Part shown: in pieces, positions 1 through 22,363 of the stretch
Layout: each line of letters begins with the position of its first letter
Position numbering within the stretch: position 1 is the first letter of the stretch
NCBI GenBank assembly: GCA_964489065.1
Contig: CAZAXH010000003.1
Span: forward strand, 63,104-127,103
Direction of reading: 5' to 3'
Length of the DNA stretch: 64,000 nt
Origin: an uncultured Planctomycetales bacterium
GTDB lineage: Bacteria; Omnitrophota; Gorgyraeia; Zapsychrales; JANLHA01
Translations under genes and position numbers: made by a program
Notes under the pieces: model-generated
What the model saw: the letters and a program-made list of their open reading frames with translations, nothing else
The model's database searches: none
Told to the model about the DNA's origin: nothing

Positions 1-3000
1 CTGTTCCGGACAGCTTTTCCTCTACCAGCGTCATAAAACTAACCAAAGCATCCACATCTTCTGCCGATTCCACGTCAGCTTCCATTTCGATAGTAAGCAA
101 GGTACCGTCCGCTTCTATGTCGCCTTTTTCCTTCGCCTCTTCTATTTTGGCAACCAATTCTGTCGCCTCTTTTTCGGGATCAAAATCCTCTCCAATCGTT
201 TTTCTTTTTATTTGGATGTAATTCTTCCCAAGAAAAGACCCATCTCTGGCAATGGGACGGAAGGTAAAACCAAGAAAATCCCGGTAAAATTTTATATATC
301 CAGAATCGTGTGAAATTGCGGACGCTACATATTCAAAACTGCCCTTAAAATTCGTGATTGCCGACATCGCCGCCACTTGGGAAAAATTATCTACCCAGAA
401 ACCGACCCGGTTATCTTCCGCCATAATCAAAAACTGCAACCCCACTTCCTGGGCTATGTCTTCATCTGTTTTCTCTGCATCTTCTTTCAGGTCATCCGGA
501 ATTGCCATACTGTCATCCCAACCCCAAGCATACCACTCCTCCGGAGCATTATATCCACCCATTTGCTCTTTTGCTTCTTCTCTTTTTTCTTCAAGCTCTT
601 CTCTTTTTTCCTGGGCCTTCAACACAGTATCTAAAGTAATGCCACCCATTTTTTGCATGGACTCAACATAGGTGCCAAATGAAGACAAGTTAGCAAACTT
701 TCCGCCAGTGGGGGCTGTTCCAACCCAGTCGCCTACTAAATTAGAAGCAAACTCCTGAAAAGCATTCCCTGTTACATTTAAGAAAATAGATCCTATGTCT
801 ACTTTTTTCGTCCCATCAGTCTTACCACCCGCTTTTTGTTGTTCCTCATAAGCTTTTGTCCCAATGGGTGCCAAATCGGAAGTTTTGAACATCCCGGCTA
901 TCGAGGCGAAAATACCTTCCGTAAGAACAGACCCCAAGAAAATTAAACTACATGTCCAAAATTGCTTGGCCCGCTCGTCCTTGTCACGTGTTTTCCCATC
1001 CGCCCCTTCGGCTTCTGAAAAATCTTCTTTACCAAAAAGAGCAAGGGCCAACAACATAGAAACTAGCGTTTGAACCGCACCCCGCCAAATCGTTCCCAAA
1101 AAAGATCCCTGAACAAACGCTTTTTCAAAAGTCCCATCACCATCATTATCAATCATGGTGACATTATGCGTTCCAGAATAATAATTTGTTACTGTTTGCC
1201 CTTCTTCGGTTGTAGTTGTAGTAGATTTTATATTCTCTTTCGTTCCAACATTTTTATAAGTATATATATCGTTTCCTTCTTCATCTTTTTCTTTCTTAAC
1301 ATCATACGTTGTTCCCCACGTGTCTCCATAAGCAATCACGTTAAACAGCGTCATCCCAATTAAAGACCCAAAATTGCCAAGAATTTGAGACATCATTGAG
1401 CTAGGGTCAAATTTATCCTTAAATATATACCTTAATATATAGCTTCCTAATCCCCCGGCCAACCGCTGCAGAGCCATCATGCCCATGTCTGCCAGGTTTA
1501 GCTTAAAAGAACTATAGCTATTCATTGCGTCTGCTTTAACTTGCGCAATCTGATCACCCGTAAGAGGTCCTTTACCATCAGCTTTTGCCTGAATTTGCGC
1601 TTTTTCAACCTGCTGATTAGCATATTGTTGCTTTGACGCCTCCGAGTCATCTTTCATACCCAGCATTTCACGCCAACCCAAACCTTCACTATCACCGTCA
1701 GCCGCGTCTTTAAACAATGCGTCTGCCGCCGCGTCCAACCCCATAGCAACAACACCCACGGCAATATCCGCAGCCAAAGAAGAAATCAAACCAACTAATA
1801 CTGACTTCAAAATCTCACTATCTATATCCAAATGCTCTTCTAAAAATTCAGCAATTTTAACTTGCACATAAGCTTTGATCATCCCGACTGTAAAGCCTTT
1901 AGCAAAAGCCTTAGCAATATCCCACAACCGCTGAGACACTGTCATGCTCGTTGTGGAAGTAGTACTCGTTGCCGTAGTTGCGGCACCGCCGCCAAACATC
2001 TTATTAAAAAACCCTTTAATCCCATTCCATATATTTTGAAGTTTTGTTATCAAACTTTGCCAAGCGCTTTGAACCCCTTCACCAAACCCACCATACCCGG
2101 CAATTAAACCTCCTGCGGCTCCAATTAAACCGCCAATAAGCGCTGCTTTAGTAGCATCTTTTCCCGTCATCTTCGCAACCGCCCACCCGAGAGCCGCACC
2201 AACAGCCGCACCAACAGCCGCATTTTGTAAAGCTGTGCTGAGAGAATTTGTAGCGGTCGAACTGGCGGTAGATTCTAAGGCGGTTTTACCGCCTCCAGCA
2301 GCAGCCTCTCCCGCGGCGTTTCCTGCCTCCGAGCCGATCCCTGCCATATAATTCAAACCTACGGAAACAGCAATTGTAATAGCTGTGCTTAAAATAAACG
2401 CATTGCTTTCACAATCGTCCCCGCCGTCATTCACACAATTAACATAATACGCTTCCCCTACGGCAGAACCAAAAGTTGAAGAAGCCAAAGAAATAATAAC
2501 TCCCAGAGGGCCACCCATAATATAAGCAATAACAATTTGGACGACCATAGAAATTACAGCCGCAAAAACGTCCGCTCCCGACAACAATCCAGGCAAGTCA
2601 TCTGATCTGTCAACCCATTTATTCCCCCACACAAACGCCTTCATGGCGTCTGATATGGGTTCATATTCCATATTTTCCTGCCGGTCCAAATTAACAGCCA
2701 ACACAAAACCGCTTATCTTTTCTTTAAATTCGTTGCGCGGCATGGATTGTTGTTTGCCTATATCAGAGAAGTAAACATTTTCCGCATCAACAGATGTAAC
2801 GGTAACAAAATGTTCAGAACCAAAATTCGCAATAAAAGGCGTATTTAAATAAAGAATATCTTGGGTGTCAACCTTGACAGCCTGAACATTCAGCCCATAC
2901 CCGCGGGCGACTTCTTCAATTGCAAAAAGTGAAGTCTTTAAAAATTTCTCTCCTGGTTCCACAATATTATTCAATAAATCTACAGAAAGAGTTGCTACCG

Positions 3001-3580
3001 CAACCTCAGCCAAGGAAGATGGAATTTTACTATACTCAAGAACATCTTTTAAAGCATAAACCCCGCAGTTAAACGGATGAATGTTTGGATCGCTCACCCA
3101 CGCCTTAACAGAATGGACATAATCCGGGGTAATTTTTCTTTTTGCGGAAATTAAAACACTATTTTCTTTAGAAACAGGACCCGAATCTCCCGAAGACAAA
3201 CCAAGCTTAATTTGGGCATTTTCTTTATTTTCAATTTGTTCCAAAAGATTAGCAACGCCAGAAGAAATCTGCGTCGCCATAATTTCTTCTTGAGAAATTT
3301 GAGGAGACTGCGAATCCAACGTCATTACTTGAACAGGAGCAGAAGTTGTTCCCCAAAGAACAGCAGGATTATAGTTAAAAGCCCAACTAACCTGCTCCGG
3401 GAGGAAAATTAAAACAACAAGAAGGGCTACCGTACGAATCCAAGACTTGAAACGACTCTTAAAAACTTCTTCTTTATATTCATTTTGGACAATATTTTTA
3501 GATGCAGCGCCTAACCCATTCTCTAATAATGCATTAGAGACAGTTCTGGCACCAAATTTTTTGTCCAATCTAAAATTCAT
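1..3580 (-). CDS. Giant membrane protein, partial (C-terminus lies beyond the window start): N-terminal signal/TM helix, papain-like peptidase C39-like domain, then a long Gly/Ala/Thr-rich polytopic region
   Basis: Minus-strand frame is open from the ATG at 3578-3580 to position 1; the ORF track lists no minus ORF here, consistent with a frame running off the edge. Hand translation: MNFRLDKKFGARTVSNALLENGLGAASKNIVQNEYKEEVFKSRFKSWIRTVALLVVLIFLPEQVSWAFNYNPA; Cys motif HPFNCGVYALKDVLEY; His/Asp motif EHFVTVTSVDAENVYFSDIGKQQSMPRNEFKEKISGFVLAV, matching the C39 CG..L / HFVV..DP pattern. Downstream region is Gly/Ala-rich with many hydrophobic helices (hand translation, unverified in detail). Confidence 0.55.
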   Translation of the reverse strand, partial: MNFRLDKKFGARTVSNALLENGLGAASKNIVQNEYKEEVFKSRFKSWIRTVALLVVLIFLPEQVSWAFNYNPAVLWGTTSAPVQVMTLDSQSPQISQEEIMATQISSGVANLLEQIENKENAQIKLGLSSGDSGPVSKENSVLISAKRKITPDYVHSVKAWVSDPNIHPFNCGVYALKDVLEYSKIPSSLAEVAVATLSVDLLNNIVEPGEKFLKTSLFAIEEVARGYGLNVQAVKVDTQDILYLNTPFIANFGSEHFVTVTSVDAENVYFSDIGKQQSMPRNEFKEKISGFVLAVNLDRQENMEYEPISDAMKAFVWGNKWVDRSDDLPGLLSGADVFAAVISMVVQIVIAYIMGGPLGVIISLASSTFGSAVGEAYYVNCVNDGGDDCESNAFILSTAITIAVSVGLNYMAGIGSEAGNAAGEAAAGGGKTALESTASSTATNSLSTALQNAAVGAAVGAALGWAVAKMTGKDATKAALIGGLIGAAGGLIAGYGGFGEGVQSAWQSLITKLQNIWNGIKGFFNKMFGGGAATTATSTTSTTSMTVSQRLWDIAKAFAKGFTVGMIKAYVQVKIAEFLEEHLDIDSEILKSVLVGLISSLAADIAVGVVAMGLDAAADALFKDAADGDSEGLGWREMLGMKDDSEASKQQYANQQVEKAQIQAKADGKGPLTGDQIAQVKADAMNSYSSFKLNLADMGMMALQRLAGGLGSYILRYIFKDKFDPSSMMSQILGNFGSLIGMTLFNVIAYGDTWGTTYDVKKEKDEEGNDIYTYKNVGTKENIKSTTTTTEEGQTVTNYYSGTHNVTMIDNDGDGTFEKAFVQGSFLGTIWRGAVQTLVSMLLALALFGKEDFSEAEGADGKTRDKDERAKQFWTCSLIFLGSVLTEGIFASIAGMFKTSDLAPIGTKAYEEQQKAGGKTDGTKKVDIGSIFLNVTGNAFQEFASNLVGDWVGTAPTGGKFANLSSFGTYVESMQKMGGITLDTVLKAQEKREELEEKREEAKEQMGGYNAPEEWYAWGWDDSMAIPDDLKEDAEKTDEDIAQEVGLQFLIMAEDNRVGFWVDNFSQVAAMSAITNFKGSFEYVASAISHDSGYIKFYRDFLGFTFRPIARDGSFLGKNYIQIKRKTIGEDFDPEKEATELVAKIEEAKEKGDIEADGTLLTIEMEADVESAEDVDALVSFMTLVEEKLSGT

Positions 3581-3844
3581 ATATTTTTCTAAAAATTAAC
3601 CAGCTTATTAAAGAAACCGTGGGCTAACTGGTGCCCGTGAATGCAAGTGGAAGGAATATTTTGAAGCATACTGAAAGAAAGCAACCAAAAATTATTTATT
3701 TTCTTACTGTGTCCTCCTGTTTTTCTAAAAATTTCTGTCATTTTTCTTTCCCAAAAACAAAAAACTACCAAGTGGTCTCTTGGTAGCCCAATAATTTACT
3801 TGAATGCTCTGAAGAGTTTAAGCAATGAAAATAATAACATTATT

Positions 3845-3930
3845 TTGTTGGCCCTCTTTCAGGAGATTCTTATAAGGCAACCTTTTACCACCTGCCCTAT
3901 AAGTATAGCATTATTATAGAGGGGCAACAA
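3845..3930. repeat. Long imperfect inverted repeat (about 86 nt): outer arms TTGTTGGCCCTCT / AGAGGGGCAACAA, inner arms CTTATAAGG / CCCTATAAG; lies in the 640-bp AT-rich gap between tadC and the giant gene
   Basis: Direct reading: outer arms 13 nt with 1 mismatch, inner arms 9 nt with 1 mismatch; the element sits about 265 nt upstream of the giant-gene start codon. Confidence 0.4.
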
Positions 3931-4224
3931 TGAATATGCAAATTTTTTTTAAAAAAAATGTTGTTTATTTACAACAGGTTACGCGCCAAAAGAAATATTT
4001 TTTAAAATTGTCTTTGAGGATTTTTTGAAAAAACGAGGAAATCGCTTTCTTATTTTTTATAATTTTCACAAAAACTATATTCAGTTCACCTCTTGCACTA
4101 CAGAATGGACAAATGCAGAGTGGACATTTTGTTGTTATTAAAATTTTGGCAAAAAACATGCAATAAGAATATTTTTTGATATTTGATCAAAAATATTCTT
4201 ATTTATAAACCCTGTCTATTGATT

Positions 4225-5112
4225 TTATTTTCCACCCAACTCGGACAACGGATTTTCTTCAATAAACTGAAGAAATATCGGTCCGGCAACAAGAATTCCG
4301 ACAACAGGAAAAATAAAGAACAAAAGCGGCACAAGCAATTTCATAGGAGCCTTCATCGCCATTTGTTCTCCTCTGCGGAACCTGGCAAGACGCATATCTT
4401 CAGACAAAAGATTTAAGGCCTCAGAAACCGAAGTCCCCATTTTGTCTGCCTGAAGAAGCGTTCTAGAGAAAGAAGAAACTTCCGGAAGGTCAAATTTTAC
4501 CGCCAAATCTTTTAAGGCATCCCGGCGGGTCTTTCCAACGTTAATTTCCTGAAGAAGAATATTCAACTCATTAATCATAACTGACGGCGTTGACTTCTCA
4601 ACAACCCATTTCAAAGCCAACATAAAGTCCAAACCGGCATTAACACAAAGCCCCAACAAATCAATAGCGTTCGGCAATTCTTTCACAATAACAGCTTTTA
4701 CTTTTTTAATTTTTCCTTTAAGCCAAAATTCCGGCATCATATAACCAATGGAAAGGCTCATAAAAAGCCAAAAAAGAATCATGTCCGGCTGAATCATTTG
4801 AAAAGTTAATAAAAGCACCAACATGATTCCGACTTCCTTCATTAAAAAAAACTCTTCCGGGGTTATATTCACATGCGCCACAGACAAATCTTTGGAAATT
4901 CTTTTCCGCAGCCCCCCTGAACACAATGGTTTATTAAACATGGCTAAGGCTCGCAATATGGACGTAGCGCTTTTTTTCTTCTTTGCCGGAGCTACTTCAT
5001 ATCCAAAAGCTTTCAATGTCGGCCTACTCTCCATTTCCACAGGAAAAAGCCCAACAACAAAACTAAATCCCGCCAAAAAACACATCGTTAAAATAAATGT
5101 CAGCATAAACAT
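4225..5112 (-). CDS. tadC: Tad pilus assembly inner-membrane protein TadC-like (T2SS F-domain family)
   Basis: 295 aa, polytopic; GspF/TadC-like stretch LGLCVNAGLDFMLALKWVVEKS...LLQADKMGTSVSEALNLLSEDMR; located next to the tadB-like gene. Confidence 0.7.
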   Translation of the reverse strand: MFMLTFILTMCFLAGFSFVVGLFPVEMESRPTLKAFGYEVAPAKKKKSATSILRALAMFNKPLCSGGLRKRISKDLSVAHVNITPEEFFLMKEVGIMLVLLLTFQMIQPDMILFWLFMSLSIGYMMPEFWLKGKIKKVKAVIVKELPNAIDLLGLCVNAGLDFMLALKWVVEKSTPSVMINELNILLQEINVGKTRRDALKDLAVKFDLPEVSSFSRTLLQADKMGTSVSEALNLLSEDMRLARFRRGEQMAMKAPMKLLVPLLFFIFPVVGILVAGPIFLQFIEENPLSELGGK

Positions 5113-5144: not shown

Positions 5145-5999
5145 TTAAAAATCTTTAAAACTACTAATCTTCCAAATCATAAAGGCCCCTATAATTTCCG
5201 AAAAAACCGCATAAACAAGCATCCCTCTTCCTATCGTGGATTTAAACATATGATCAAAAAAGGTCGGATTTGTCCCATAAATAATCATAAAAAACATAAC
5301 GGGCAGAGCCGACATAACAACGCCTTGTATCTTCCCCTGAACAGTCAACGTATCTATCTGGGATTTGATTCTTTTTTGTTCACGAATAACATTCACAATA
5401 CGCTGAAAAATGCTGGGCAAGTTTCCTCCTGTTTCCCTGGCCAACAAAATAGCCGTTGTCATCTGCTGGACAGCAGGAGAAGGTTGCCGATTATAAAGGT
5501 GATTCAGGGCTTCGTCCAAAGAAACCCCCATATTATTTTCCCCTAAAACAATCGAAAATTCCTGATTTATAGGATCTGGCATTTCTTCCACAACCGCTTC
5601 CATAGCTTGAACCAAACTCAATCCTCCGCGGAAGGAACTGGACATAATCATAAGGGCATCTATCAACTGGTCATCGAATTTCCTCCTGTTTTGCCCTATA
5701 AGAAGGTTATTATAAACCCCAGGAAAAATTAAACCAAAAACCAAGCCGATTCCTATGCCAAAAAGCCGCAAGTCTTCCGGGAAAAACATATAACAGCCCC
5801 CGCCAAAAACAATAGGAGCGATAACATAAAATCGGGTAATTTTTTCGACTTTGGACCGAGGCAAAACCCTGTCCAACCGGGAAGAAAGCTTGTGCGCCCG
5901 TTTCTGTCCGACCTCCACCGATTTGTTATAAATCAATGGAATAACAAAATAGCCAAACATTGTGGCCGATATAAATATACAAAATAGAGAAACATACAT
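5145..5999 (-). CDS. tadB: Tad pilus assembly inner-membrane protein TadB-like (T2SS F-domain family)
   Basis: 284 aa, TM helices; GspF-like motifs DDQLIDALMIMSSSFRGGLSLVQAMEAV...ARETGGNLPSIFQRI. Confidence 0.7.
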   Translation of the reverse strand: MYVSLFCIFISATMFGYFVIPLIYNKSVEVGQKRAHKLSSRLDRVLPRSKVEKITRFYVIAPIVFGGGCYMFFPEDLRLFGIGIGLVFGLIFPGVYNNLLIGQNRRKFDDQLIDALMIMSSSFRGGLSLVQAMEAVVEEMPDPINQEFSIVLGENNMGVSLDEALNHLYNRQPSPAVQQMTTAILLARETGGNLPSIFQRIVNVIREQKRIKSQIDTLTVQGKIQGVVMSALPVMFFMIIYGTNPTFFDHMFKSTIGRGMLVYAVFSEIIGAFMIWKISSFKDF

Positions 6000-6023: not shown

Positions 6024-6464
6024 CTAATAATCAATAAGCTCTCTGCCTACATCCCTACAACGCGCCCCTGCTGCGGTTGATTCACTGCATCCTTCCAAAC
6101 ACTGCAGACACTGCGTGATGTACCCTGTTGTTCCTGGCGGCAGAGTACAGTCGCATGGCGCCGCATCGTAACAATCGCGTGAAATCCACCGGTTAATTAA
6201 CGTACACGGCCGTGTCGGGCCTGTTCCCGAGGTGCAATGCGTGGCATCAAAAAAACACTCTAACGTCCCGCCTCCGTCTCCATAATTCCCAAAAGGCCGG
6301 GGATCATACTGACGTCCCGCGCCAAAAGAATCTCCGGCCTTTTTCCAACTGCCATAATAAGCCCTTAAAATATAACCTTGAAAAACAAATAAGCTAGAAA
6401 GAAGAAAAACAATCAAGGTCATATACTCTAATATAGATTGGGCATGCTTCTTGTGCCGCAACAT
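6024..6464 (-). CDS. Cys-rich Flp/TadE-family prepilin-like protein (146 aa)
   Basis: N-terminus MLRHKKHAQSILEYMTLIVFLLSSLFVF has a class-III (Flp-type) signal, but with Ala rather than Gly before QSILEY; C-terminal part contains 10 Cys. Confidence 0.5.
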   Translation of the reverse strand: MLRHKKHAQSILEYMTLIVFLLSSLFVFQGYILRAYYGSWKKAGDSFGAGRQYDPRPFGNYGDGGGTLECFFDATHCTSGTGPTRPCTLINRWISRDCYDAAPCDCTLPPGTTGYITQCLQCLEGCSESTAAGARCRDVGRELIDY

Positions 6465-6496: not shown

Positions 6497-9400
6497 TTAG
6501 TTCAGCCCATTAAGAAAATTTTCGTCACACTCCACAAAACGAACCCGAAAGCCTTTATCTCCGCTATAGCCGGAACCGCCTCCCAAAAAATATTGCGCGC
6601 AGGTTGCCGTTGAATATCCGTATCTTAATAAACTTTCATGAATAAAATTCCAGCAATCCAAATACTCCGCCGAACCTCTCGGAGGCGTGGCGCTGGCTGT
6701 GGGTGTTTGGTTAATCATAAACGCATTTCTCCACCCCCATTCCCAGGTTTGGGCCGCGATATTGGGGTCAATCATAATAGCGCAAGTGACCTCCAAATCC
6801 GTCGGGTCCTGATCTGACCCTTCCGGATGATAATATTGCGGTTTCCATAAAAGGGTGCCATCCGGAAAACGTATTTTACTACCAACCGTGTCTTCATCAT
6901 AACGGATCACCCGGGCCTTAACACGGCCTGTCATCTCCTTCAATTCATAACAACGTTTCATCCCCCAACTTTTTGTATAGGTATCAATATACGGCCACCG
7001 ATCTGTTCCACATGCGCTGTTGCACCGCCCGGGAGTTCGCACCTCCACCTTAACAACATGCCAGTCTCCCCGGATTGTATTATAAACATCTTTGGGTTCG
7101 TCCTGCCAAGCATAAATGGCAAAAGACGTGGTGGCCGGAGGATAAATATTCCCCCAAGATTTACAGGCGTCAATAAGACCTTGAGCCGGACCGGAAAGAA
7201 AAGCATCAATATGGCTAAGCCCGTTCCATAATATATTTCTTATCTGAATCGCTTCTTCCTCGCGTCCTGCGAGCATTTCCCAACGCTTTGCCATTTTCAT
7301 TGACTGGTTCGCCGCAGCCAAAACACTCTGGTCTAATAAGTCTTTCCATTCTCCGGGGTCGGTTTCACCGCACGACCCAATGTTAGTATCCAATGCTGTT
7401 TCAATGGCATCAAAGAACGGGGTTGCGCCGACGCCGCAAAGCTGGCCACAGGTCCCCAAAAGATCTGTCGGCAACCCATACCAGGTACAAGAACAATTCA
7501 ATGCGTCGGATAAAACCGTGGGGCTGTCACAATCAATAGTTGTTGCCTGATCCCGGCATTGGTTCGGGAGGTTTAACGTTGGGTTAGCATTGCAAAAAGC
7601 ATACATAGCTCTTAAATTTGTTAACAGAGATGTATCTGGGGCAGGCAAAGTGGCGTTGTCAGATGTGGGAACAAAAGCAGGAATCCCGTACCCGCCAGGC
7701 AACGAAGAACAATCATCATTGCAGGTTGGAATAGACTCTGTACCCAAGCACAAAGTTAACGCGATCAAATCCGCCTCGGGCATAGGAATCGTGAACCGTA
7801 AGGCATCAAACCCAGGGACAAGCGACCTGGGCAATATCGCGCAACTGTGGCCGGAATTCATAGGATCGTTGTCACAATCCCACTTACACGCATCAAATTT
7901 CTCAAAATTTCCCACCGCCTGGGAACCAGTTACAGGATAAATAATCGGATTCCCGGATGCATCCTGCGCCAGATCATGAAGATTCCATTCCAGACAAGCA
8001 ATAACATCCTCTAAGTCGCCCCGGCCATCCCCGCTAACATCAAAAGACGCCTGTTCTTCCTGGCTTACCCCGGGACACTCCAAACCGTTATATCCTGACT
8101 GAAAACCCAGATATGCGGGATCCGCATATTTATTAGCAGCAACCTGCGGGGGCGGAACACACCAAACCGCCGGGTCAACCGCCGCACTATTGATAAAACA
8201 CCCGGAACCAACATAAAGATCCGCGTCGGGAGGATTCAGCCAGGCCCCAATTGGAATATAAAAAGAAGCCAAATCTTCGCGCCAAATATACCAGTATCCG
8301 CCATCCACATCCCCGGTGCAGCTCCCCGGACAATCCGCAGCATTCCCGCTCGGGCACGGCGTTTCAATCCAGGTCGCGGCTTCCTCGTACCACTCATCGA
8401 AATGGGATTCCAGGTAGTCCTTATCTTTATCCATAACTCCCGTCGCCCACTCATAAAATTCCGGCAACCCATAAATAAATTCATCTAATTTATCATCGGG
8501 CCAATTTGTGGACACATATTCAAAATTATTTGCTGCCTGCGTCCTGTCTATGGGCGGCGTCGGCGGTAAGGCCCCGCCTGTCCCGCAATCACAATCAATC
8601 GGCCAGGTTGTCCCTGTTTCTGGGTCCACTTCCACGCAAGGAGGAGATCCTCCGGGAGGGGCGCCGGCTTTTCTGCATTCGGCCATATAAGGCCATTCAT
8701 CCGGCGGATCACAGAATTGATCGCCACCTCTTTTCCAACCGCCTTCATCCTGCGCGCAAACAGCGTCGTCGGCCAAAATAGCATCAATGTTCGGCACCAA
8801 ATCCAGTAGCTGCGGTGGATCTCCGTCCGCCCCGGTGTTTGCGGCATCCACACACCAACCGCCGCTATACAAGGCATTATCTGGCGTCTCAGGAAGCTCA
8901 AGCGCGGTGCCAATCTCCGCCGGATAAGAAGTTATTCCGGCACAAACAGCCGGGACTGTTCCTGCGGCAACACCATCCACATCACATAAATGACACTCCA
9001 AATTGTCCCGGGCCGGGTGAATATCAGGAGGATCAGGAAGCAACGCGCCATAAGTTAACGACTGTAAATCCATGCCCCAATCCGCCAATTTATAAAAAAA
9101 CGGAAAAATACCAGGCTTATCGTCGGCAGAATAATAACCGGTTGCGTCTTCCATATAGAAATCATATTCCAAAGCGCCGGAACGGATCAGCTGAGAGTGG
9201 TCCAGGGTCGCCCCGGTGCCATCAATCAAATAATTCCAATTCGGCCTGGCTGGATTAACTGCATATTGATGATGTTCGTCGTCAAAACCAAACCATTCAC
9301 GAAATGAAATGTTGGCCGGATCCCAAGCGCCGGCATTTTTATTATTCGTGGAATCTTCGTTCATCCCTCTAAAAATATACGGATAAGACAACAAAGCATT

Positions 9401-13254: not shown

Positions 13255-13271
13255 TTTTTATTAAAAAAGCC

Positions 13272-14071: not shown

Positions 14072-14125
14072 TGAAAATTCCTCCCTATAAAATTCAGATT
14101 TTCGTTACACTAAGTTATCTGGATC

Positions 14126-14500: not shown

Positions 14501-14539
14501 TTATGTTTCCTCCATTTACTTTTGTCTCTTGATAATTAA

Positions 14540-14746
14540 TTACGGATTATCATAACGAGATGTTTGTAACCGATTGGCCATATCAAACATGCCATTCGTA
14601 CCCGTACGCAAGGTTGAATTAAACGCTTGGTTAAAAATACCATTAGTCGGGTTTAAGAAAATAATCAGAATGGCAATAACACCTGTCACCAAAATAATAT
14701 ACTCGAGGGTGCTTTGCCCTTTCTTTTTTCTGTTCTTGTATACCAT
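14540..14746 (-). CDS. flp: Flp-family prepilin paralog 2 (68 aa)
   Basis: MVYKNRKKKGQSTLEYIILVTGVIAILIIF; AGGAGG RBS upstream. Confidence 0.75.
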   Translation of the reverse strand: MVYKNRKKKGQSTLEYIILVTGVIAILIIFLNPTNGIFNQAFNSTLRTGTNGMFDMANRLQTSRYDNP

Positions 14747-14811
14747 TAGTAATTCCTCCTATAGTTTGATCCACACCACTCAAAGCTAGGCGGGTTTTCC
14801 CTCCCGCCACT

Positions 14812-14961
14812 TTAATCTTTGAATCCTTCTGAAATCACCTGCTGTGTTGCCTGAATTGATCTAAACACGTAGGTGCTCATGGCAAGCATGGCTGACGCGA
14901 CTAAGGCCACGACGATGGCATATTCTACTATGTTTTGTCCTTTTTCTTGTTTCCATGGATT
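14812..14961 (-). CDS. flp: Flp-family prepilin paralog 1 (about 50 aa; start taken at an internal Met with a strong RBS)
   Basis: MGHNPWKQEKGQNIVEYAIVVALVASAMLAM; GGAGGTGA 8 nt upstream of the ATG at 14961; the longer ORF to 15036 has no RBS. Confidence 0.7.
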   Translation of the reverse strand, partial: NPWKQEKGQNIVEYAIVVALVASAMLAMSTYVFRSIQATQQVISEGFKD

Positions 14962-15167
14962 ATGCCCCATCGCGCCTTCACCTCCGTGCCCACAGATGAT
15001 TCGTACCCAACTCTTGCAACCTAAGAGTGGATTCACTCCGGGCTATATTACCGGATATTTCCGGTATCCTCCAGATTTGGGTCAAAAAACATAACAAAAA
15101 TCTGGAGGATTAAACCCCCGACAAAAGGGGTAAAAAGCTAATTTTAAAATTATGAAAGAGCTAAAAC

Positions 15168-15210
15168 AGAAACGGTTTCTTTATAAACTTAAAGAAACCG
15201 TTTTTAAAAA
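15168..15210 (-). terminator. Perfect 15-bp inverted repeat (GAAACGGTTTCTTTA ... TAAAGAAACCGTTTC) with flanking T/A runs; putative terminator after the 570-aa gene, or an operator upstream of the pilin array
   Basis: Direct reading of the palindrome between the stop of the 570-aa gene and the first flp gene. Confidence 0.35.
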
Positions 15211-15375
15211 AGCGCAGACAACACCTGTCGCTTTTAGATATCTTAAAATAATCTGGAAGAAAACTCTAAAATTTTTTGTCATATTATGACCTATCATTTG
15301 TTTTCCCAGCGATGAATGAAGTATATCATAATATATTACAAAATGTCAAGGATTGAATCTTGGGGCGAAAAGGGA

Positions 15376-17088
15376 TTATTGTCGACGGGAAAAAATTTTC
15401 ATCATCAATTTTTTTCCATGAAAAGTCACGATGTTTCTTTCATTAATTCGCGTCACGGCTGACTTCAGCTCCTCAAAACAGGCATAATCATTACCGGGGA
15501 TGAGCAGAACTTGCATCGCCTCGGGATGAGCCGAAATAGTTCCCGAAAGAGGAAGAATTATGTCCTTCAAATGCACCGGAAGTAGGCTTGTTTTCCCGGA
15601 AGAAAAATAGGTTTGCCAAGCATAATGTGCTAAAAATTCAGAAAAAATTTTTTTAATATTAATATTTCTATTAATATTATATTTATTTCCTTGAAATAGC
15701 AGGAATTGAGAATCTTTGGCCTTGACTTTTCCAACAGAATAATTAAATCCTCGTTGAAAATTAGGCCAACGACGATAGTATGTCTTTATTACATCACTGG
15801 CATGATACAAATTATTCGGAGCATTGGTTAATATGACAGCAAAAGGACTTGCCGTCGGATTTTCTTTTAACGGAAAAACACGTAACCCCAATCTTGGTTG
15901 AAAATCATCATCAAAAGGAAGCGTTGTTAAAGTTTCAAAAAAATACACGCAATCCTCGAAAAACGGATCAACAAATTTTTCTAATTTATTGCTTCGCAAG
16001 GATTTCAGCAAAGGATAAAACTCTGGTTGCCAAGGCCACAAACATGTAATGAAATATCTTTTTTTAGGGGGAATATAATCAAAACAGGCGACTTCATTCC
16101 TTTCTACATCTAACAGAGAAACCTGAATAATTTTTTTCCCTTCCTTATTATCAAAAGCCCCGCATAGATCTAAAAACTGCCGGGCACAATATGCGTGTTG
16201 AGATAAATTTTCTTTGATGTTTAAGATTGGACAAAAACAAAAAACAACAGGTTGGACATTACTGATTATCTCTTCAGAAATTGTTTTGGTACACTGTGTT
16301 ATGGTATTAAAAAATGGCAAATCTGAATCTTTTGTCCAAACTGAACTCATTTCCGCATCTAAAAACAAATTTTCACCATTCTCTAATTTCAACTGAACAA
16401 AAAACACCTGCGTCATGTAATATTGCAAATTTATCATGAACTTCAACACAATTTCTTCCCAATTTTCCATGCTGCTTAATTCTGACAATAATCCTTCTGC
16501 ATTAAAGCCCCTCTTGTCACTTTGAGAAAGGCCTTTTATCCAAAGCCCTTCAGAAATTTCATTTTTTTCAAAAATTTCCATATAAAGCAATTTTTCAACC
16601 AAGCTGTTAATTTGAATGTCTTCTAAAAACGAAAACCTTTCGGAAAAAATCTCTGCCAAAAAAGGTTCCCGGAAAAGCTCCCATTCTGCCGCTTTTATAA
16701 ACATATAACCAACATCTGGAATAACCTGACAATCTTTTTTTGACGTATCAATGTTTGGGAAGGAGGCTTCTTTTTGAATAGCCGTTTTTACTTCCAAAAG
16801 ATCTTTGGGGCATGTTTGCAAAGTTGACTTATTTATTAATGCTTTTCTGGCCCTTTTTCTAGGTGCCAAAGGTTTTTTTTCTAAAGGTGCGTTTAAAGTT
16901 CTTCTTCCTACCGGACTGTTAAGGTTAGCTTCTTTCAAAACAGCGCTAATGGAAGATTTAGATAATTTAATTACAAATTTTTTATAAACCAAATCGGAAA
17001 GCTTTCGGCAGCTTAAGGCCGGACTCGCGGCTTTTTCAGCCACAATAAAATCAATGACCTCTTCTGTAAGTTTATATACGACACCCAT
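15376..17088 (-). CDS. Hypothetical protein (570 aa) with an N-terminal HTH-like region; AT-rich gene interrupting the Tad locus
   Basis: Long ORF; N-terminus LTEEVIDFIVAEKAASPALSCRKLSDLVYKKFVIKLSKSSISAVLKE resembles an HTH; the rest could not be assigned; composition is visibly more AT-rich than neighbouring genes. Confidence 0.5.
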   Translation of the reverse strand: MGVVYKLTEEVIDFIVAEKAASPALSCRKLSDLVYKKFVIKLSKSSISAVLKEANLNSPVGRRTLNAPLEKKPLAPRKRARKALINKSTLQTCPKDLLEVKTAIQKEASFPNIDTSKKDCQVIPDVGYMFIKAAEWELFREPFLAEIFSERFSFLEDIQINSLVEKLLYMEIFEKNEISEGLWIKGLSQSDKRGFNAEGLLSELSSMENWEEIVLKFMINLQYYMTQVFFVQLKLENGENLFLDAEMSSVWTKDSDLPFFNTITQCTKTISEEIISNVQPVVFCFCPILNIKENLSQHAYCARQFLDLCGAFDNKEGKKIIQVSLLDVERNEVACFDYIPPKKRYFITCLWPWQPEFYPLLKSLRSNKLEKFVDPFFEDCVYFFETLTTLPFDDDFQPRLGLRVFPLKENPTASPFAVILTNAPNNLYHASDVIKTYYRRWPNFQRGFNYSVGKVKAKDSQFLLFQGNKYNINRNINIKKIFSEFLAHYAWQTYFSSGKTSLLPVHLKDIILPLSGTISAHPEAMQVLLIPGNDYACFEELKSAVTRINERNIVTFHGKKLMMKIFSRRQ

Positions 17089-17386: not shown

Positions 17387-17629
17387 ATGATCAAATGTCC
17401 CTACTGTTACGAAATGCTTCCTTCGACAGAAAATCTACGTTGTCCACATTGTTTACAATTTATCATTGATTCGGCAATAACCACAGACTTCCCTAGTCTT
17501 GATAAAAAACACTGTCTTTTTTGTGGGAAAAAAATATTATTGGAAGCTAAAATTTGCCGGCATTGTAAACGCTGGCTTGACGAAATCGAACAGGCCGCCA
17601 GAGATATCGATCCAGAAGACCTGGTTTAA
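17387..17629 (+). CDS. Small zinc-ribbon protein (four CxxC pairs)
   Basis: MIKCPYCYEM...CPHC...CLFCGKK...CRHCKRW; 80 aa. Confidence 0.45.
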   Translation: MIKCPYCYEMLPSTENLRCPHCLQFIIDSAITTDFPSLDKKHCLFCGKKILLEAKICRHCKRWLDEIEQAARDIDPEDLV

Positions 17630-17997
17630 CAGAACTCATTCGGATTTGGCTTTTCCTCCTCCAAGAGAAGGGCGTCTCCTTTTTCTGTTCGAGAAGAATC
17701 AATCACCCCAACGGGTAATTCTATTGCTTTTTTGGCCCGGAAAAAATACGGGCTTATTTGGAAGGGTTTAATATTTCTGACCAATCCTAAAACCTTATTA
17801 TTTTTATTAACAAAAATAACATCTATGGCAAAACGCATAAAAAGCATATGGATTTGCCGGCACTCTGTAATCACCAACCCTTCTTCTGGAGACAGGGATC
17901 CACGGTTAAGAAGGCCAACCAAACGAGATACAACCGTATCGGCTAACTGAGCCCGTTCGGCAATAAGTGTACCTTTTGTTTGATTAGTGATACGCAC
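17626..17997 (-). CDS. DUF192 family protein
   Basis: LIAERAQLADTVVSRLVGLLNRGSLSPEEGLVITECRQIHMLFMRFAIDVIFVNKNNKVLGLVRNIKPF matches the DUF192 pattern (GLm.r...G..l......iHm.fM.f.iDviF.d....v). Confidence 0.6.
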   Translation of the reverse strand: MRITNQTKGTLIAERAQLADTVVSRLVGLLNRGSLSPEEGLVITECRQIHMLFMRFAIDVIFVNKNNKVLGLVRNIKPFQISPYFFRAKKAIELPVGVIDSSRTEKGDALLLEEEKPNPNEFC

Positions 17998-20159
17998 TAG
18001 CTTTTGGAGGGTTTAGAAAACATCTGCTTATCAATAGAAAGCCCCATAGTCACAAAATCCTCAAAACTTTTCGGAATATACCCCGTTGCTTCATGATCAC
18101 CGATAATCGTTCCGTTTTCATCAATGCCTTTCTGATTAAAAATAAAAATATCCCGCAAATCCAAGGCATGGTCACTCGTCAGCCCAACAACTTCTGTTAT
18201 CCCGGTAATTTTCCTGGAGCCATCGGAAAATCTGGCCACGTGAACAATAAGGTCGATGGCCGAAGAGATCATGTCGTTAATGGCCCGCATCGGCAACTCA
18301 ATGCCACTTAGAAGAATCATAGAGCTCATACGAACCAAAACATCCCGGGTAGAATTAGCATGCAACGTGGTCATAGAACCGTCATGCCCCGTATTCATAG
18401 CCTGTAACATGTCCAGGACTTCTGGGCCTCGACATTCCCCAATAAGTATACGATCCGGCCGCATACGTAAAGAATTTATAAAAAGATCCCGAATAGTCAC
18501 GGCGCCCTTGCCTTCAATGTTCGTCGGACGGGACTCCAGCCGTCCCCAATGGCTCTTTTTCAGCCTTAATTCCGCAGCGTCCTCAATCGTAATAATACGT
18601 TCGTTATCCGGAATAAACTGTGAAATAACATTTAATAACGTGGTCTTCCCGGAACCGGTCCCGCCTGAAACAATTATATTTTTTCTCGCAAGAACACACG
18701 CCTGTAAAAATTCTCTCATGATCTTGCTGAAACTGCGATATTTTTGTTCCAGGTCTTCGACATCCAGTCTCTCTGCGCCGAATTTACGAATAGTGATCAT
18801 CGGACCATTTAAAGAAAGCGGAGGAATTATGGCGTTAAAACGGGACCCGTCCGGAAGGCGGGCGTCCACCATGGGGGTTGATTCATCAATGCGGCGCCCC
18901 AAAGGCGCGATAATACGGTCAATGATCGCCCGCATTTGCTGGTCGGAAACAAATTTTCTGTTCGTCAAAATAAGCTTCCCGTGTTTTTCAATATATAACT
19001 CATCTTTATTATTTCCCATAATATCCGAAACATCGGGATCAGCCAAAAACTCTTCTAGCGCCCCTAATCCCAAAGCCTCGTCAACAATTTCTTTTACCAG
19101 CCTCCGGCGTTCTTCGTGAGAAGAAATCATCGCCCCTTTCTCTTCAATAAGTAAATTGCTGACAATTTTCCTGGCGTCATCTTTCAATTCTGCCGCTTTA
19201 GCCGGATCGCTGAGGTTGTCGGGACTTAAATCCTCTATGTTAAGCCGGCTGACCAATTTTTCATGAATCCTTCTCTTTAAAGAAGTAATTTCATCCTCTT
19301 CTTTTGAAAAAACGCCTCCGGGAATATTTTGTGGCGTAATGCCAAATTTTTCCCAAAACTTACCCGGTTTATCTAGCCCTTCGGTGTTTCTTTCTTTTTC
19401 AATTTCAAAAGCCTGAACAAAAAGTTCTTCTTTCTTCAGGTCGTTCACCATCCGGCTAAAGGCTTCGGTGACAGGGCTCTTGGGCGAATCAATAATCACG
19501 GGAACCCCGCGATTTAAGGCCATGCCTACAGCGCGCCCATCCGAAGGAATACGAGAGAAGATTTCGCAGGCCAAAGCCGAACGGACCTCCTGCCAAGCAA
19601 CACCTCCCCGGCTTTCCGCGCGGTTTAAAATCAACTTAACCATTTTTAACGGAAAATGCAGACTCTGCAACATCTCTAAACACCACTTCACCTGATATAC
19701 GGCCAAAACATCGGGGGTTGCGACAAGAAAAATAACGTTACAGTGATCGAGCACCGTTAACATCGTTTCGCTGAACAATTTTCCAACATCAACAATGATA
19801 AAGTCGTAAACCTGCCCCACCTTTCTGAAAAAAGGTTTAATGTTTTCAGACGAGATATGTCCGGCTTGTTTGGCATGTAAAACGCCCGGAAGGAAATCCA
19901 GCCCGCTGGAATGAGAGCTGACGTATTTTTTGATAACTTCCGCATCTTCGCTTTTTTCTATTTCAGCCAATAAATTAACCAAGCTGTTTCGTGGCGCCAA
20001 ATTTAACATACGCGCCATGTCATGCGTAGCCTGAAAATCCATATCAAGCAACAAAACCCTCTTCCCCGACAAAGCTAACGCCGTTGCCATATTAACGCTG
20101 ACAAATGTTTTCCCAACACCGCCTTTATTGCTAAAAACACTGATTATTTTTGAACTCAT
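17997..20159 (-). CDS. tadZA: Fused Tad pilus ATPases: N-terminal TadZ/CpaE-like ParA/MinD-family domain plus C-terminal TadA/CpaF secretion ATPase
   Basis: N-terminus VFSNKGGVGKTFVSVNMATALALSGKRVLLLDMD (deviant Walker A); C-terminal half NIIVSGGTGSGKTTLLNVI, ITIEDAAELRL, TGHDGSMTTLHANS (CpaF/VirB11-type Walker A, Asp box, His box); 720 aa in a single ORF. Confidence 0.8.
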   Translation of the reverse strand: MSSKIISVFSNKGGVGKTFVSVNMATALALSGKRVLLLDMDFQATHDMARMLNLAPRNSLVNLLAEIEKSEDAEVIKKYVSSHSSGLDFLPGVLHAKQAGHISSENIKPFFRKVGQVYDFIIVDVGKLFSETMLTVLDHCNVIFLVATPDVLAVYQVKWCLEMLQSLHFPLKMVKLILNRAESRGGVAWQEVRSALACEIFSRIPSDGRAVGMALNRGVPVIIDSPKSPVTEAFSRMVNDLKKEELFVQAFEIEKERNTEGLDKPGKFWEKFGITPQNIPGGVFSKEEDEITSLKRRIHEKLVSRLNIEDLSPDNLSDPAKAAELKDDARKIVSNLLIEEKGAMISSHEERRRLVKEIVDEALGLGALEEFLADPDVSDIMGNNKDELYIEKHGKLILTNRKFVSDQQMRAIIDRIIAPLGRRIDESTPMVDARLPDGSRFNAIIPPLSLNGPMITIRKFGAERLDVEDLEQKYRSFSKIMREFLQACVLARKNIIVSGGTGSGKTTLLNVISQFIPDNERIITIEDAAELRLKKSHWGRLESRPTNIEGKGAVTIRDLFINSLRMRPDRILIGECRGPEVLDMLQAMNTGHDGSMTTLHANSTRDVLVRMSSMILLSGIELPMRAINDMISSAIDLIVHVARFSDGSRKITGITEVVGLTSDHALDLRDIFIFNQKGIDENGTIIGDHEATGYIPKSFEDFVTMGLSIDKQMFSKPSKS

Positions 20160-20356: not shown

Positions 20357-22363
20357 TTATTCCGATCCCGTCCCCTCTAAAACAGCTTCCTGGCTGTAAA
20401 CAATAGGGATGGTTACAACCAATTCTTCTAATTTCAGCGCTTCAGGGAAAGAAGAAAATGGGGCTAAAATACGCGCCGTATTAATTGCGTCTTTATCAAA
20501 AGCCTCGTGCCCGGAAGACGTCTGAACACGCGCATCATTAAGTGTCCCATCACTTAAAATAACCAACGAAAGAACCACCGTGCCTTCCCAACCTTGCTCT
20601 TTAGCTTCCATGGGGAACGAAATCGCCCGGGAAATTTTCTTTTGAATAGCTTGCACATATTCTGTAATCGCCTGGGACGTCGCATCGTCAATGCTTGCCC
20701 CTCCTTCAGGAGAAGTAGGCTCGGGCGAGGGTTCCTGTGGTTCCTGTTCCGCATCTGATTCGGGAACCTCCTCTGCCGGAAGATCGACCACCGATTCTTC
20801 CTCAAATCCAGCCGCCAGCTGGGACATATCGGCTTCTTCTGTTTCCATCGGTTCTGTTTTTTCCGCCATGGATTCTTCTCCGAAGGGCGACTCTTCCATT
20901 TCCTGCTCCGACAACTCTTCTGCCGGAACGTCCGCTTCCTCTGTTTCTTCTAAATCTTCAGCAAGGATGGCATCGATTTCATCTGATATAGAATCCAATT
21001 TTTCCAGAGAAGCGTCTTCCTCTTCGTCGGCCGCAATCTTGTCTTCAGGAACCACCGGCTGTGCCTGGGCTTCTTCTTGATATAAATCTTCCGCTATTGA
21101 ATATTTTTTACGAACTTCCTGGTTCTCAAGATTCATGTTTTTCTGCGTAACAATACGAGGCGTCAAAGAAATAACCACTTCCTGTTCCGTGTCCGTCGGC
21201 CAATTTTTGTTGCGGAACAAAAAGCCAATAATCGGGATCCTTCTCAGGAAAGGAACCCCGGTAACTGTTTCGGCTTTATTGTGCTTAATAAGCCCTGCCA
21301 GAACGATGGTCTGCCCATCATCCAAAAAAAGGATAGTGTCGGCGGTCCTGCTCGTAAAGGCCACGTTCTCCCCTACCGCGTTAGAGGCATCGATGTCTCT
21401 AATCCCGACATTTAACTTAACTTCTATCTTCTCCCCAACAATCTTTGGCGTAACCTTAACATCGATCCCATAAGAAGTATACTCAACATTCTCCTGGACG
21501 CTGGCGCCGCCGGTAGATGTTGTCGTGCTTCTTACCGGGATTTCCCCTCCGACCAGGAAAGATGCCGGCTCGTCGTTCTTAACCACGATGCTGGGTTTCG
21601 ATAAAACCCTGGCCTCTCCTTCCGCAATCAGCGCCGTCACAATGGCCTGAATAGCGGAAGTCCTTTGAAAATCTCCAATCTTAAACAAATCCTTAACGCT
21701 GCCGTCAAAAGTGGGCATTGTTTCTTCATAGGCAAAAATCATCCCGTCGCCGCCCGTGTTCCAGTCTATCCCCAAGGCCTTTTGTAAAGTCGTGTTCAGT
21801 TCAGAAATTTGCACATCAATCTGAATAAGGTCGCTGTATTCCTCAACGTAATTAAGCACATAATTTGAAAACGGGCCCAATATTTCTTCATAGGCTGCTT
21901 TTTTTTGATTAAGCACTGTCCCGGTTAAAATAATCTTTTGTTCAAAAATGTTTTTTTCCATTTTAACCGTCGACACGCCTATCGCGTCAAACAGCCTTTG
22001 CAGACGCGCCATAAGCGAATCCAGGTCCTCAGCTAAAACCCGAACAAAAACCTGCCGTTTTCCATATTCATCCCAGATAAACAGCTGTGTTTCCCCAACC
22101 GCTTGCCCCACGATCAGCAGCTCATCAATATCCGCATTCGCAATCTCAATAACCCCTGGTTTACTGATGGCGATCCTGGTCAGCTGATACACCTTTAACG
22201 AAATCAGATCCCCTTTATACAAATAGACATCCTGTGTCTCGGCAGAATCAAAAACATCCTGAACCTGAGCCAAGGCCGGATTTACGGAAAACTGAGATAA
22301 AATAAAACAAACAGCGAAAACACCCCTAACGATTAATTGTTTAGTACTAGTTATTTTGTGCAT
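20357..22363 (-). CDS. cpaC: Tad secretin (CpaC/RcpA family) with a C-terminal acidic low-complexity linker and a TonB C-terminal-like domain
   Basis: Secretin core ARVLSKPSIVVKNDEPASFLVGGEIPV...VISLTPRIV; acidic stretch EDLEETEEADVPAEELSEQEMEE...; C-terminal ISFPMEAKEQGWEGTVVLSLVILSDGTLNDARVQTSSGHEAFDKDAINTARILAPFSSFPE matches the TonB_C pattern (YP..A...g.eG.V.l.f.I..dG.v....v..SSG...lD.aAl.av...p.p). Confidence 0.8.
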   Translation of the reverse strand: MHKITSTKQLIVRGVFAVCFILSQFSVNPALAQVQDVFDSAETQDVYLYKGDLISLKVYQLTRIAISKPGVIEIANADIDELLIVGQAVGETQLFIWDEYGKRQVFVRVLAEDLDSLMARLQRLFDAIGVSTVKMEKNIFEQKIILTGTVLNQKKAAYEEILGPFSNYVLNYVEEYSDLIQIDVQISELNTTLQKALGIDWNTGGDGMIFAYEETMPTFDGSVKDLFKIGDFQRTSAIQAIVTALIAEGEARVLSKPSIVVKNDEPASFLVGGEIPVRSTTTSTGGASVQENVEYTSYGIDVKVTPKIVGEKIEVKLNVGIRDIDASNAVGENVAFTSRTADTILFLDDGQTIVLAGLIKHNKAETVTGVPFLRRIPIIGFLFRNKNWPTDTEQEVVISLTPRIVTQKNMNLENQEVRKKYSIAEDLYQEEAQAQPVVPEDKIAADEEEDASLEKLDSISDEIDAILAEDLEETEEADVPAEELSEQEMEESPFGEESMAEKTEPMETEEADMSQLAAGFEEESVVDLPAEEVPESDAEQEPQEPSPEPTSPEGGASIDDATSQAITEYVQAIQKKISRAISFPMEAKEQGWEGTVVLSLVILSDGTLNDARVQTSSGHEAFDKDAINTARILAPFSSFPEALKLEELVVTIPIVYSQEAVLEGTGSE

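Follow-up and report, generated by a model that had tools for sequence, protein, structure and literature searches.

What kind of machine is encoded by the Tad/Flp-like gene block of an uncultured Omnitrophota bacterium, and what ties it to the giant gene into which it runs? The block lies in a 64,000-nucleotide stretch of DNA (contig CAZAXH010000003.1, positions 63,104 to 127,103; hereafter the window), where a single minus-strand run from about 24.3 kb down to base 1 holds the cassette genes described below, apart from one on the plus strand. A preliminary description of this DNA had seen in it an unusual Tad-type pilus locus and not a described system. By homology, the machine is of the Tad/Flp type (type IVc) and not of the Gsp type, with lineage-specific deviations, and the window is a further instance of the already described Tad cassette associated with giant genes in Omnitrophota. 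The window does not add a new kind of system; it contributes details of the cassette's unnamed components and a pair of possible regulatory RNAs.

Gene identities were obtained by listing and translating open reading frames (ORFs), followed by Pfam and NCBIfam scans of the called genes of the window. The block contains (aa, amino acids; TM, transmembrane):

23257-24264, minus strand: SurA-like peptidyl-prolyl isomerase (PPIase; Pfam Rotamase_2), which opens the cassette and whose N-terminus resembles a signal or lipoprotein sequence
22449-23252, minus strand: CpaB/RcpC (PF16976, E = 8e-23; TIGR03177, 86 bits against a cutoff of 71)
20357-22363, minus strand: RcpA/CpaC-type secretin (Secretin 2e-41, T2SS-T3SS_pil_N 9e-8 and TonB_C 1.5e-14 in a single ORF)
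17997-20159, minus strand: TadZ::TadA fusion ATPase, 720 aa, with a ParA/MinD-like domain and T2SSE in one ORF
17626-17997, minus strand: DUF192 protein, 123 aa (PF02643, E = 5e-16), its start overlapping the ATPase stop
17387-17629, plus strand: 80-aa double-zinc-ribbon protein, homologous to a gene of related locus L003 with faint DZR matches
15376-17088, minus strand: 570-aa helix-turn-helix (HTH) protein, cytoplasmic, no family above threshold
12580-14970, minus strand: seven small pilin genes with class III signals, recognised by N-terminal motifs
14812-14970, minus strand: pilin P1, class III signal
14540-14746, minus strand: pilin P2, class III signal
14126-14500, minus strand: pilin P3, class III signal
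13751-14071, minus strand: pilin P4, class III signal
13272-13628, minus strand: pilin P5, class III signal
12916-13254, minus strand: pilin P6, class III signal
12580-12888, minus strand: pilin P7, class III signal
10844-12559, minus strand: 571-aa prepilin-like protein, signal LG↓QSGTEL, 18 Cys (the arrow marks the cleavage site)
10527-10838, minus strand: 103-aa prepilin-like protein, signal PG↓QVSLEF, in the position of a TadE/F-type pseudopilin
6497-10546, minus strand: 1349-aa Cys-rich membrane protein, 54 Cys, three N-terminal TM segments
6024-6464, minus strand: 146-aa prepilin-like protein, signal HA↓QSILEY, Cys-rich C-terminal part with 10 Cys
5145-5999, minus strand: TadB-like platform protein, 284 aa, single T2SSF domain (PF00482, E = 1e-17)
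4225-5112, minus strand: TadC-like platform protein, 295 aa, single T2SSF domain (PF00482, E = 5e-14)
3581-4224, minus strand: conserved spacer and leader before the giant gene, with a promoter-like site and a terminator-like hairpin
1-3580, minus strand: 5' part of the giant gene, 1193 codons from ATG 3580, open to the window edge
2690-3088, minus strand: C39-like cysteine peptidase domain of the giant, about aa 165-297 (PF03412, E = 4.6e-10)

A Tad system is preferred over a type II secretion system (T2SS) or a type IVa pilus because the ATPase is best matched by TadA, the platform proteins have one T2SSF domain each, CpaB scores above its equivalog cutoff and the secretin carries a pil_N domain. 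Homology also points to a TadZ-like domain on the ATPase and to Flp-like prepilins with Flp-type signals. Among the NCBIfam models the fused ATPase scored best with the TadA family (312 bits, under the 373-bit cutoff), compared with 43-53 bits for GspE and 39 bits for PilB; in Pfam its TadZ-like half has a ParA/AAA_31/CbiA domain (aa 3-256) with a KGGVGKT motif and its T2SSE domain was found at E = 1.6e-59. The features of a T2SS are lacking: the ATPase is TadA-like, the platform is made of two one-domain proteins with no two-domain GspF, and the Pfam and NCBIfam results for the locus genes include no GspC, GspL or GspM. One Tad component is also lacking, the A24 prepilin peptidase (TadV/CpaA), which is absent from the window and from about 40 related loci.

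Every gene listed in the preliminary description was recovered in the same order on the minus strand, and the Pfam and NCBIfam scans it had called for showed the ATPase, platform proteins, CpaB and secretin to be of Tad type. Its list was accurate apart from the plus-strand zinc-ribbon gene at 17387-17629, which was overlooked, and its end at 22363 fell too early, leaving out the PPIase and cpaB, the latter a gene on its own list; the conserved block reaches 24264. Both reported fusions were borne out, that of the ATPases by a ParA/MinD-like domain and T2SSE in a single 720-aa ORF and that of the secretin by Secretin, pil_N and TonB_C domains within ORF 20357-22363, where an acidic linker of about 160 aa joins the secretin to the C-terminal TonB_C domain. 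The numerous or enlarged pilins and the large Cys-rich pilin-like proteins were likewise recovered, with 54, 18 and 10 Cys in the 1349-, 571- and 146-aa proteins and class III-type signals on the last two, as were the seven flp paralogs, each a small ORF with a class III signal. The names tadG-like and tadE-like have no support from hidden Markov models (HMMs) and depend on N-terminal motifs: no TadE or TadG HMM in Pfam or NCBIfam matched a protein of the locus.

The canonical Tad/Flp/Cpa pili (Aggregatibacter tad, Caulobacter cpa, Pseudomonas flp-rcp) have in common with this locus the TadA ATPase, the one-T2SSF TadB and TadC, CpaB/RcpC, an RcpA-type secretin with pil_N, a Flp-sized major pilin with a G↓xxxxEY signal and TadE/F-like pseudopilins. 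They differ in that here TadZ is fused to TadA and the secretin carries TonB_C, the locus is without TadV and no TadD pilotin was recognised. Moreover, ten pilin-like genes are present here (about three are canonical) with Gln invariant at +1, the 571- and 1349-aa pseudopilin-like proteins contain many Cys, and the locus is linked to a giant gene. The predation-linked Kil system of Myxococcus (PMC8460266) and the Tad system of Bdellovibrio resemble the cassette in that they derive from Tad machines, carry additional genes without known function, have altered N-termini on the ATPase, unusual secretins and several pilins, and have been proposed to act in contact with prey. However, the Kil ATPase has an FHA domain whereas that of the Omnitrophota cassette has a ParA-like domain, and Kil has a peptidase gene (KilA), no adjoining giant gene and accessory genes unrelated to those of the Omnitrophota cassette. 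Archaeal EppA-dependent (Epd) pilins, matched by Class_IIIsignal (PF04021), have the same Q-x-S/T-x-E-x-x-x-L N-terminus with Gln at +1, but the system here is that of a double-membrane bacterium, with a secretin and CpaB, and no EppA gene was seen.

The view that this is not a described system does not hold, as three reports place the locus upstream of Omnitrophota giant genes. West-Roberts et al. (2023; 10.1101/2023.11.21.568195) describe a conserved locus upstream of the giants with gspD, gspE, gspF, rcpC, a Rotamase_2 PPIase and class III-signal genes, note C39 domains near the N-termini of the giants and interpret the locus as a T2SS-like secretion system. Seymour et al. (2023; PMC10066038) give the locus of V. 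archaeovorus as a complete Tad complex expressed in co-culture, with giant-protein peptides about 3-fold enriched in attached cells, and report giant ORFs in most Velamenicoccia. A 2026 preprint lists a 24-member giant-protein cluster with PF03412 and finds that 13 of 14 giants are flanked by genes for secretion or pili. The window has every component of the cassette of West-Roberts et al., in that order, together with a giant of at least 10,568 aa and named relatives that are Omnitrophota or a third-party annotation (TPA) metagenome-assembled genome (MAG). The V. archaeovorus LiM locus (CP019384.1, 12382-29832) is of the same phylum, has the listed components and lies upstream of a C39 giant, with nothing essential that differs. 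Term searches of passages in the three papers found no mention of the TadZ::TadA and secretin-TonB_C fusions, of prepilin-type signals on large Cys-rich proteins, of a fixed set of seven orthologous Gln+1 pilins, of the HTH and zinc-ribbon genes, of the consistent absence of an A24 gene from the cassette or of RNA leaders.

Related loci were taken from contigs encoding homologues of the 1349-aa protein and from GTDB species representatives scanned with the family alignment, and were surveyed by local phmmer. The GTDB species representatives gave 38 loci, all from Omnitrophota or from TPA MAGs mislabelled as Planctomycetales, and about 40 loci were found overall. The comparison of synteny that the preliminary description had suggested returned the same gene order in all of these: secretin+TonB_C, TadZ::TadA, DUF192, HTH, small pilins, 571-like, 103-like, 1349-like, 146-like, TadB, TadC and giant. 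This order is rigid down to 26-30% identity of the 1349-aa protein. TadZ::TadA is in one ORF in 27 loci, the secretin-TonB_C fusion is present in every locus covering the 3' end of the secretin gene, and the DUF192 gene and an HTH protein at the same position are present in every locus covering the site. The zinc-ribbon gene has the same position, on the opposite strand, in 12 other loci. In 30 loci the gene after TadC is a giant that has the same N-terminal module, and in some loci opposite-strand genes are inserted in the TadC-giant spacer. Locus L045 has enough downstream DNA, yet no giant-module ORF occurs within 7 kb after TadC (downstream of 15740). Short giant-module ORFs of 576 and 1031 aa were also noted at L010:8070-9797 and L029:8923-12015, where the contig continues. 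The short or missing giants of these three loci could be assembly breaks, pseudogenes or genuine losses. The guess that the apparatus belongs to a small-celled bacterium agrees with this distribution, since the cassette belongs to Omnitrophota, a mostly small-celled and host-associated lineage.

All ten pilin-like proteins, the seven small ones and those of 571, 103 and 146 aa, have the signal [GA]↓Q-x3-4-E-[YFL]. Each of the seven small pilins starts with a basic leader whose last residue is G or A; then come Gln, Glu at +5 (+6 in one) and a hydrophobic helix, giving [G/A]↓Q-x3-4-E-Y; the cleavage sites follow a [KR][GA]↓Q pattern with no double-glycine. Pilin P2 matches Class_IIIsignal at 31 bits, above the cutoff of 23.7, and P1 matches Pfam Flp_Fap at 25.6 bits, under the 32.2-bit cutoff. 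From ATG 14970, P1 has 52 aa, or 41 aa when mature. The small pilins are found as one-to-one orthologues in the same order in most of 15 loci, some at 27-36% identity of the 1349-aa protein, with patterns such as G↓QNxIEYA…AMSTYVF for P1, KNKKA↓QQTAEYALLISLVVA…MQTYAQ for P3 and KG↓QSTLEYAVLIIIVIGALLSIQVYIK for P4. They are therefore old, specialised paralogues and not recent duplicates.

The small pilins have almost no Cys, whereas the 1349-, 571- and 146-aa proteins have 54, 18 and 10. In the 1349-aa family, 34 of the 54 Cys are kept in at least 80% of 17 homologues, and Cys conservation in the large proteins fits disulfide-bonded extracytoplasmic domains. The 1349-aa protein begins with G↓Q and a hydrophobic helix without Glu at +5 and has further TM segments at aa 134-152 and 162-180; an alternative start at ATG 10498 would give 1333 aa. 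Residues Q15 and E19 of the 571-aa protein are nearly invariant (15 homologues), and the 146-aa protein cross-matches two small pilins in phmmer. A search of 5.8 billion clusters gave 17 relatives of the 1349-aa protein, 15 of the 571-aa protein and 26 of the 570-aa HTH protein, and all named relatives of the three families are labelled Omnitrophota or Omnitrophica. Scans of all members of the 1349- and 571-aa families with Pfam and NCBIfam found no credible domain. Structure prediction, another check suggested beforehand, was done with AlphaFold2 on aa 190-1349 of the 1349-aa protein and on the 571-aa protein, using their own small alignments, and gave poor models. The model of the 571-aa protein has a long N-terminal helix (aa 8-63) followed by beta-strands, as in pilins, which is the sole usable feature of both models. 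Mean confidence (pLDDT) was 58.8 for the 1349-aa and 59.7 for the 571-aa model, and Foldseek found nothing in the PDB at E <= 0.001 (best 0.31 and 0.79, respectively).

The giant ORF is far longer than the more than 1190 aa, with a C39 peptidase, that had been reported for it. A Logan contig (L001) identical to the window over 15,112 nt has a giant call of 10,568 aa reaching the contig end, and this length is a lower bound (at least 10,568 aa). Called giants from five loci are from more than 10,000 to 76,285 aa long and have one common N-terminal module, made up of a basic stretch, a TM helix (aa ~50-68), WAFNYNP..LWG, the C39-like domain, FVWGxKW and further TM segments. With aa 1-330 as the query, HMMER found 375 proteins at E <= 1e-3 among 1.84 billion representatives, 69 of them at E <= 1e-30, and in the 375 the match is almost always N-terminal. 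The giant has many TM segments, and no ABC transporter domains were found in its first 3118 aa.

The PF03412 match spans aa 216-297 of the giant (profile positions 45-129). Among the best 150 relatives, Cys172 of the NCG motif is kept in 141, His257 of EHFV in 137, and D or E at Asp273 in 127; because Cys and His are kept in most of them, the C39 domain is probably an active protease. Hydropathy and the positive-inside rule put it between TM1 (aa 50-68) and TM2 (aa 329-347), and it is predicted to be periplasmic because it follows an N-in signal-anchor and precedes TM2. The Pfam C39 match and the Cys and His are common to the C39 domains of ABC transporters (PCAT, ComA; PDB 6mpz), but the domain of the giant is not ABC-fused, is predicted to be periplasmic and not cytoplasmic, and belongs to the N-terminal module of a protein of >10,000 aa. 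Its similarity to solved C39 domains is weak (E = 0.04-0.17). The main phmmer matches of this region in the PDB, designed armadillo repeats, were rejected as spurious repeat-summed matches with no single significant stretch.

Two intergenic regions of the cassette contain candidate RNA leaders. Pilin 1, first placed at GTG 15036, was reassigned to ATG 14970, and the region upstream of this ATG is taken as non-coding because it contains a frame-breaking indel between close relatives. The features found there are:

14965-15065, minus strand: structured RNA leader before pilin 1 (covariance model R1), a candidate cis-regulatory RNA
15349-15320, minus strand: near-consensus promoter TTGACA-N18-TATACT, just past the stop codon of the HTH gene

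Within about 100 nt, the pilin-1 leader combines hairpin P0, the motif AAUAKA, hairpin P2 nested inside outer stem P1, and a conserved AUCAUCUG, which can base-pair with the region of the start codon (GAUGA) or, in single-sequence folds, with the Shine-Dalgarno (SD) sequence. Model R1, built from 14 sequences and used at E <= 0.05, gave exactly one match per locus, always upstream of pilin 1, in 26 loci (for example L002:5418-5502 and L036:5747-5831), 12 of them outside the seed. In an alignment that was itself fitted to the covariance model, 86.5% of cells were paired compared with 78.2% after shuffling (0/500 shuffles reached the observed value; slid controls 39-55%) and the covariation score was 0.34 compared with 0.21 (again 0/500; slid controls <= 0.12). 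Compensatory changes occur in 10 of 14 pairs, and z = -2.66. On a plain MAFFT alignment RNAalifold recovered only the anti-start helix, and stems P1 and P2 needed the covariance-model alignment. About 90-160 nt after the TTGACA promoter and upstream of the pilin leader are two terminator-like hairpins with T runs (15231-15163, minus strand). This promoter and hairpin region is common to the window, L002 and L009, and 15163-15349 could be a short transcript or an attenuation region.

The spacer between TadC and the giant (3581-4224) shows nucleotide conservation above spacer expectation in four relatives. It contains the palindrome TTGATCAAATATCAA (4176-4190), the tandem 12-mer TTGTCCAYTCTG twice (4101-4127) and a promoter-like site (3942-3913), followed by a conserved putative transcript of about 160 nt (3912-3754) ending in a terminator-like hairpin (3789-3762) and by a further conserved leader of about 170 nt before the giant ATG. 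Covariance model R2 of this leader gave a clear match in L013 and weak ones in three further loci, each time upstream of the giant of that locus; because it is convincing only there, the leader is reported for close relatives and not for the phylum. It may be an attenuator, a riboswitch-like leader or a small RNA, and the pilin-1 leader is a candidate new cis-regulatory RNA. Rfam 15 at gathering thresholds found nothing in the cassette locus, and at E <= 1 both intergenic leaders gave only chance-level matches (E >= 0.12, far under gathering scores). Cyclic di-GMP and other known riboswitches were considered for the intergenic regions and dropped, with no Rfam match.

The HTH protein encoded between DUF192 and the pilins has no TM segment, and its N-terminal 63 aa are the best-conserved part in 26 homologues. 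Weak matches of these residues to HTH_32 (17 of 19 members) and HTH_Tnp_Tc3_2 (9 of 19) suggest that it is probably a DNA-binding regulator; the family profile had no match among PDB sequences. Its C-terminal part has the stretch Y-x2-R-W-P-N-x4-F-x3-K. This resembles the YREK motif of IS4-type transposases with the Glu replaced. The protein may be a dead or domesticated transposase, a reading that is not claimed here. The 80-aa zinc-ribbon protein has four CxxC pairs, and its gene is transcribed towards DUF192 and away from the 570-aa gene.

We think it fairly probable that this genome has, in the block, its copy of a Tad (type IVc filament) cassette specific to Omnitrophota, placed before a giant surface-protein gene and working as follows; a host- or prey-contact pilus whose peptidase is encoded elsewhere is its likely function. 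A PilD- or TadV-type prepilin peptidase encoded elsewhere would cut all ten prepilin-like proteins after G or A, leaving Gln at +1. The shortest pilin, P1, would build the fibre. Priming or capping it, and adhesion, would fall to the other six small pilins and to the 571-, 103- and 146-aa proteins, which are Cys-rich and presumably disulfide-bonded. The three-TM 1349-aa protein would not leave the inner membrane and would assist assembly in the manner of TadG. Through its TonB_C domain the secretin may be anchored to the cell wall or to a partner in the outer membrane. Contact with a host or prey cell would be made by the pilus, and the giant protein encoded beside it would act there; the periplasmic C39 domain would have the giant or a partner protein, and not the pilins, as its substrate. 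Expression of the pilins may be gated by the RNA leader through sequestration of the start codon or SD sequence and that of the giant gene by its terminator-bearing leader, and the conserved HTH protein may contribute. Several points weigh against this account. A prepilin peptidase gene is absent from the window and the approximately 40 loci, and the pilus and adhesion of this organism are predicted from genes alone. The link in function between pilus and giant is drawn from synteny and from published proteomics of another species. The tip or adhesin roles of the large proteins are inferred from N-terminal motifs and position, these proteins having no recognisable fold and poor models, and the presence of three TM segments speaks against the 1349-aa protein being built into the fibre.

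The main rival, which we consider rather unlikely, is a T2SS-like exporter in which a minor-pilin pseudopilus acts as a piston to push the extracellular parts of the giant, or fragments released by C39, through the secretin, with no long adhesive pilus. This is close to the interpretation given by West-Roberts et al. (10.1101/2023.11.21.568195), and ten pilin-like proteins of fixed orthology do resemble one major and several minor pseudopilins; strict synteny with the giant gene and a protease predicted to be periplasmic would also suit it. However, the ATPase, platform, CpaB and secretin are all of Tad and not Gsp type, the GspC, GspL and GspM families are absent from the Pfam and NCBIfam scans of the locus genes, P1 has the size typical of a Flp fibre subunit, and the many TM segments of the giant suggest a membrane-inserted protein, not one secreted whole. 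That the pilus serves DNA uptake, twitching or surface colonisation, its adjacency to the giant reflecting only shared regulation or history, seems improbable to us. Tad pili of other bacteria are described as doing so, a promoter-like site and a leader precede the giant gene itself, and the spacer of some loci carries opposite-strand genes; yet in about 30 loci, with the 1349-aa protein at 26-36% identity, adjacency is kept in spite of these insertions, and for this reason we read it as selection on the linkage of pilus and giant.

The missing peptidase gives rise to another alternative, that the C39-like domain of the giant stands in for the A24 enzyme and matures the pilins, as the preliminary description had hinted by placing a papain-like peptidase where a prepilin peptidase might be expected. 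It had stated that 64 kb hold no A24 peptidase, and this was confirmed: Pfam scans of the called genes across the window found none, phmmer with E. coli GspO matched none of the window ORFs of at least 40 aa, and the window has no spare or unexplained polytopic ORF and no GxGDxK motif. Nor was an A24 homologue found in any of the approximately 40 related loci. This absence, the conserved Cys/His pair and a giant gene that always adjoins the cassette speak for the substitution. Nevertheless, class III prepilin leaders are removed at the cytoplasmic face by A24 peptidases and C39 enzymes cut after Gly-Gly-type motifs. The C39 domain lies between TM1 and TM2 behind a basic N-terminus, so it is predicted to be periplasmic; it is part of the N-terminal module of the giant family (375 representatives), and the pilin sites are [KR][GA]↓Q, unlike Gly-Gly. 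Because of its predicted location and these sites the domain is unlikely to be the prepilin peptidase, and we give the idea hardly any credence. PilD (K02654) occurs in some Omnitrophota genomes, at least one of which also has a CpaF homologue, according to the KO table of Seymour et al. (PMC10066038). Prepilin peptidases act promiscuously: the Kil system of Myxococcus can do without its cognate peptidase, and a Tad-like system may be served by PilD (PMC8460266). A bolder combination, in which the clade has no A24 gene at all, another protease cuts the Gln+1 prepilins, and pilus and giant form one prey-contact organelle switched on by two new ligand- or signal-responsive RNA leaders, one sequestering the start codon and one bearing a terminator, strikes us as very doubtful.

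The other 40 kb of the window comprise the chromosomal origin region and housekeeping genes. The origin region (26000-40000) has dnaA, dnaN, dciA, gyrB and gyrA on the minus strand and yidD, yidC, parA and parB on the plus strand, with the GC-skew minimum near 33 kb and dnaA about 9 kb from the Tad cassette. A position near the origin may be conserved, because the V. archaeovorus Tad locus lies at 12-30 kb of its chromosome. The housekeeping part also contains a 6S RNA (49024-49179, plus strand; Rfam, 55 bits) and a stand-alone PilZ-domain gene (53954-54334, plus strand) that does not adjoin the cassette; in the literature, giant genes are reported to have PilZ genes downstream.

Members of Omnitrophota occur widely, have for the most part ultra-small cells and no cultured representatives, and are thought to live as predators or parasites. 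The cassette and its adjoining giant gene are the main genomic candidates for host attachment and attack in this phylum. The interest of the locus lies mainly in the peptidase question, in how the conserved Cys-rich proteins fold and in the two candidate RNA leaders. The identities of the pilin-like ORFs, the fixed and ancient pilin set, the conserved fusions and the lack of a peptidase of its own narrow the range of targets for proteomics and cryo-electron tomography. Both leaders are testable candidates for new classes of cis-regulatory RNA and, if they are real regulators, would offer a handle on when the cell commits itself to a gene of more than 30 kb and to the pilus.

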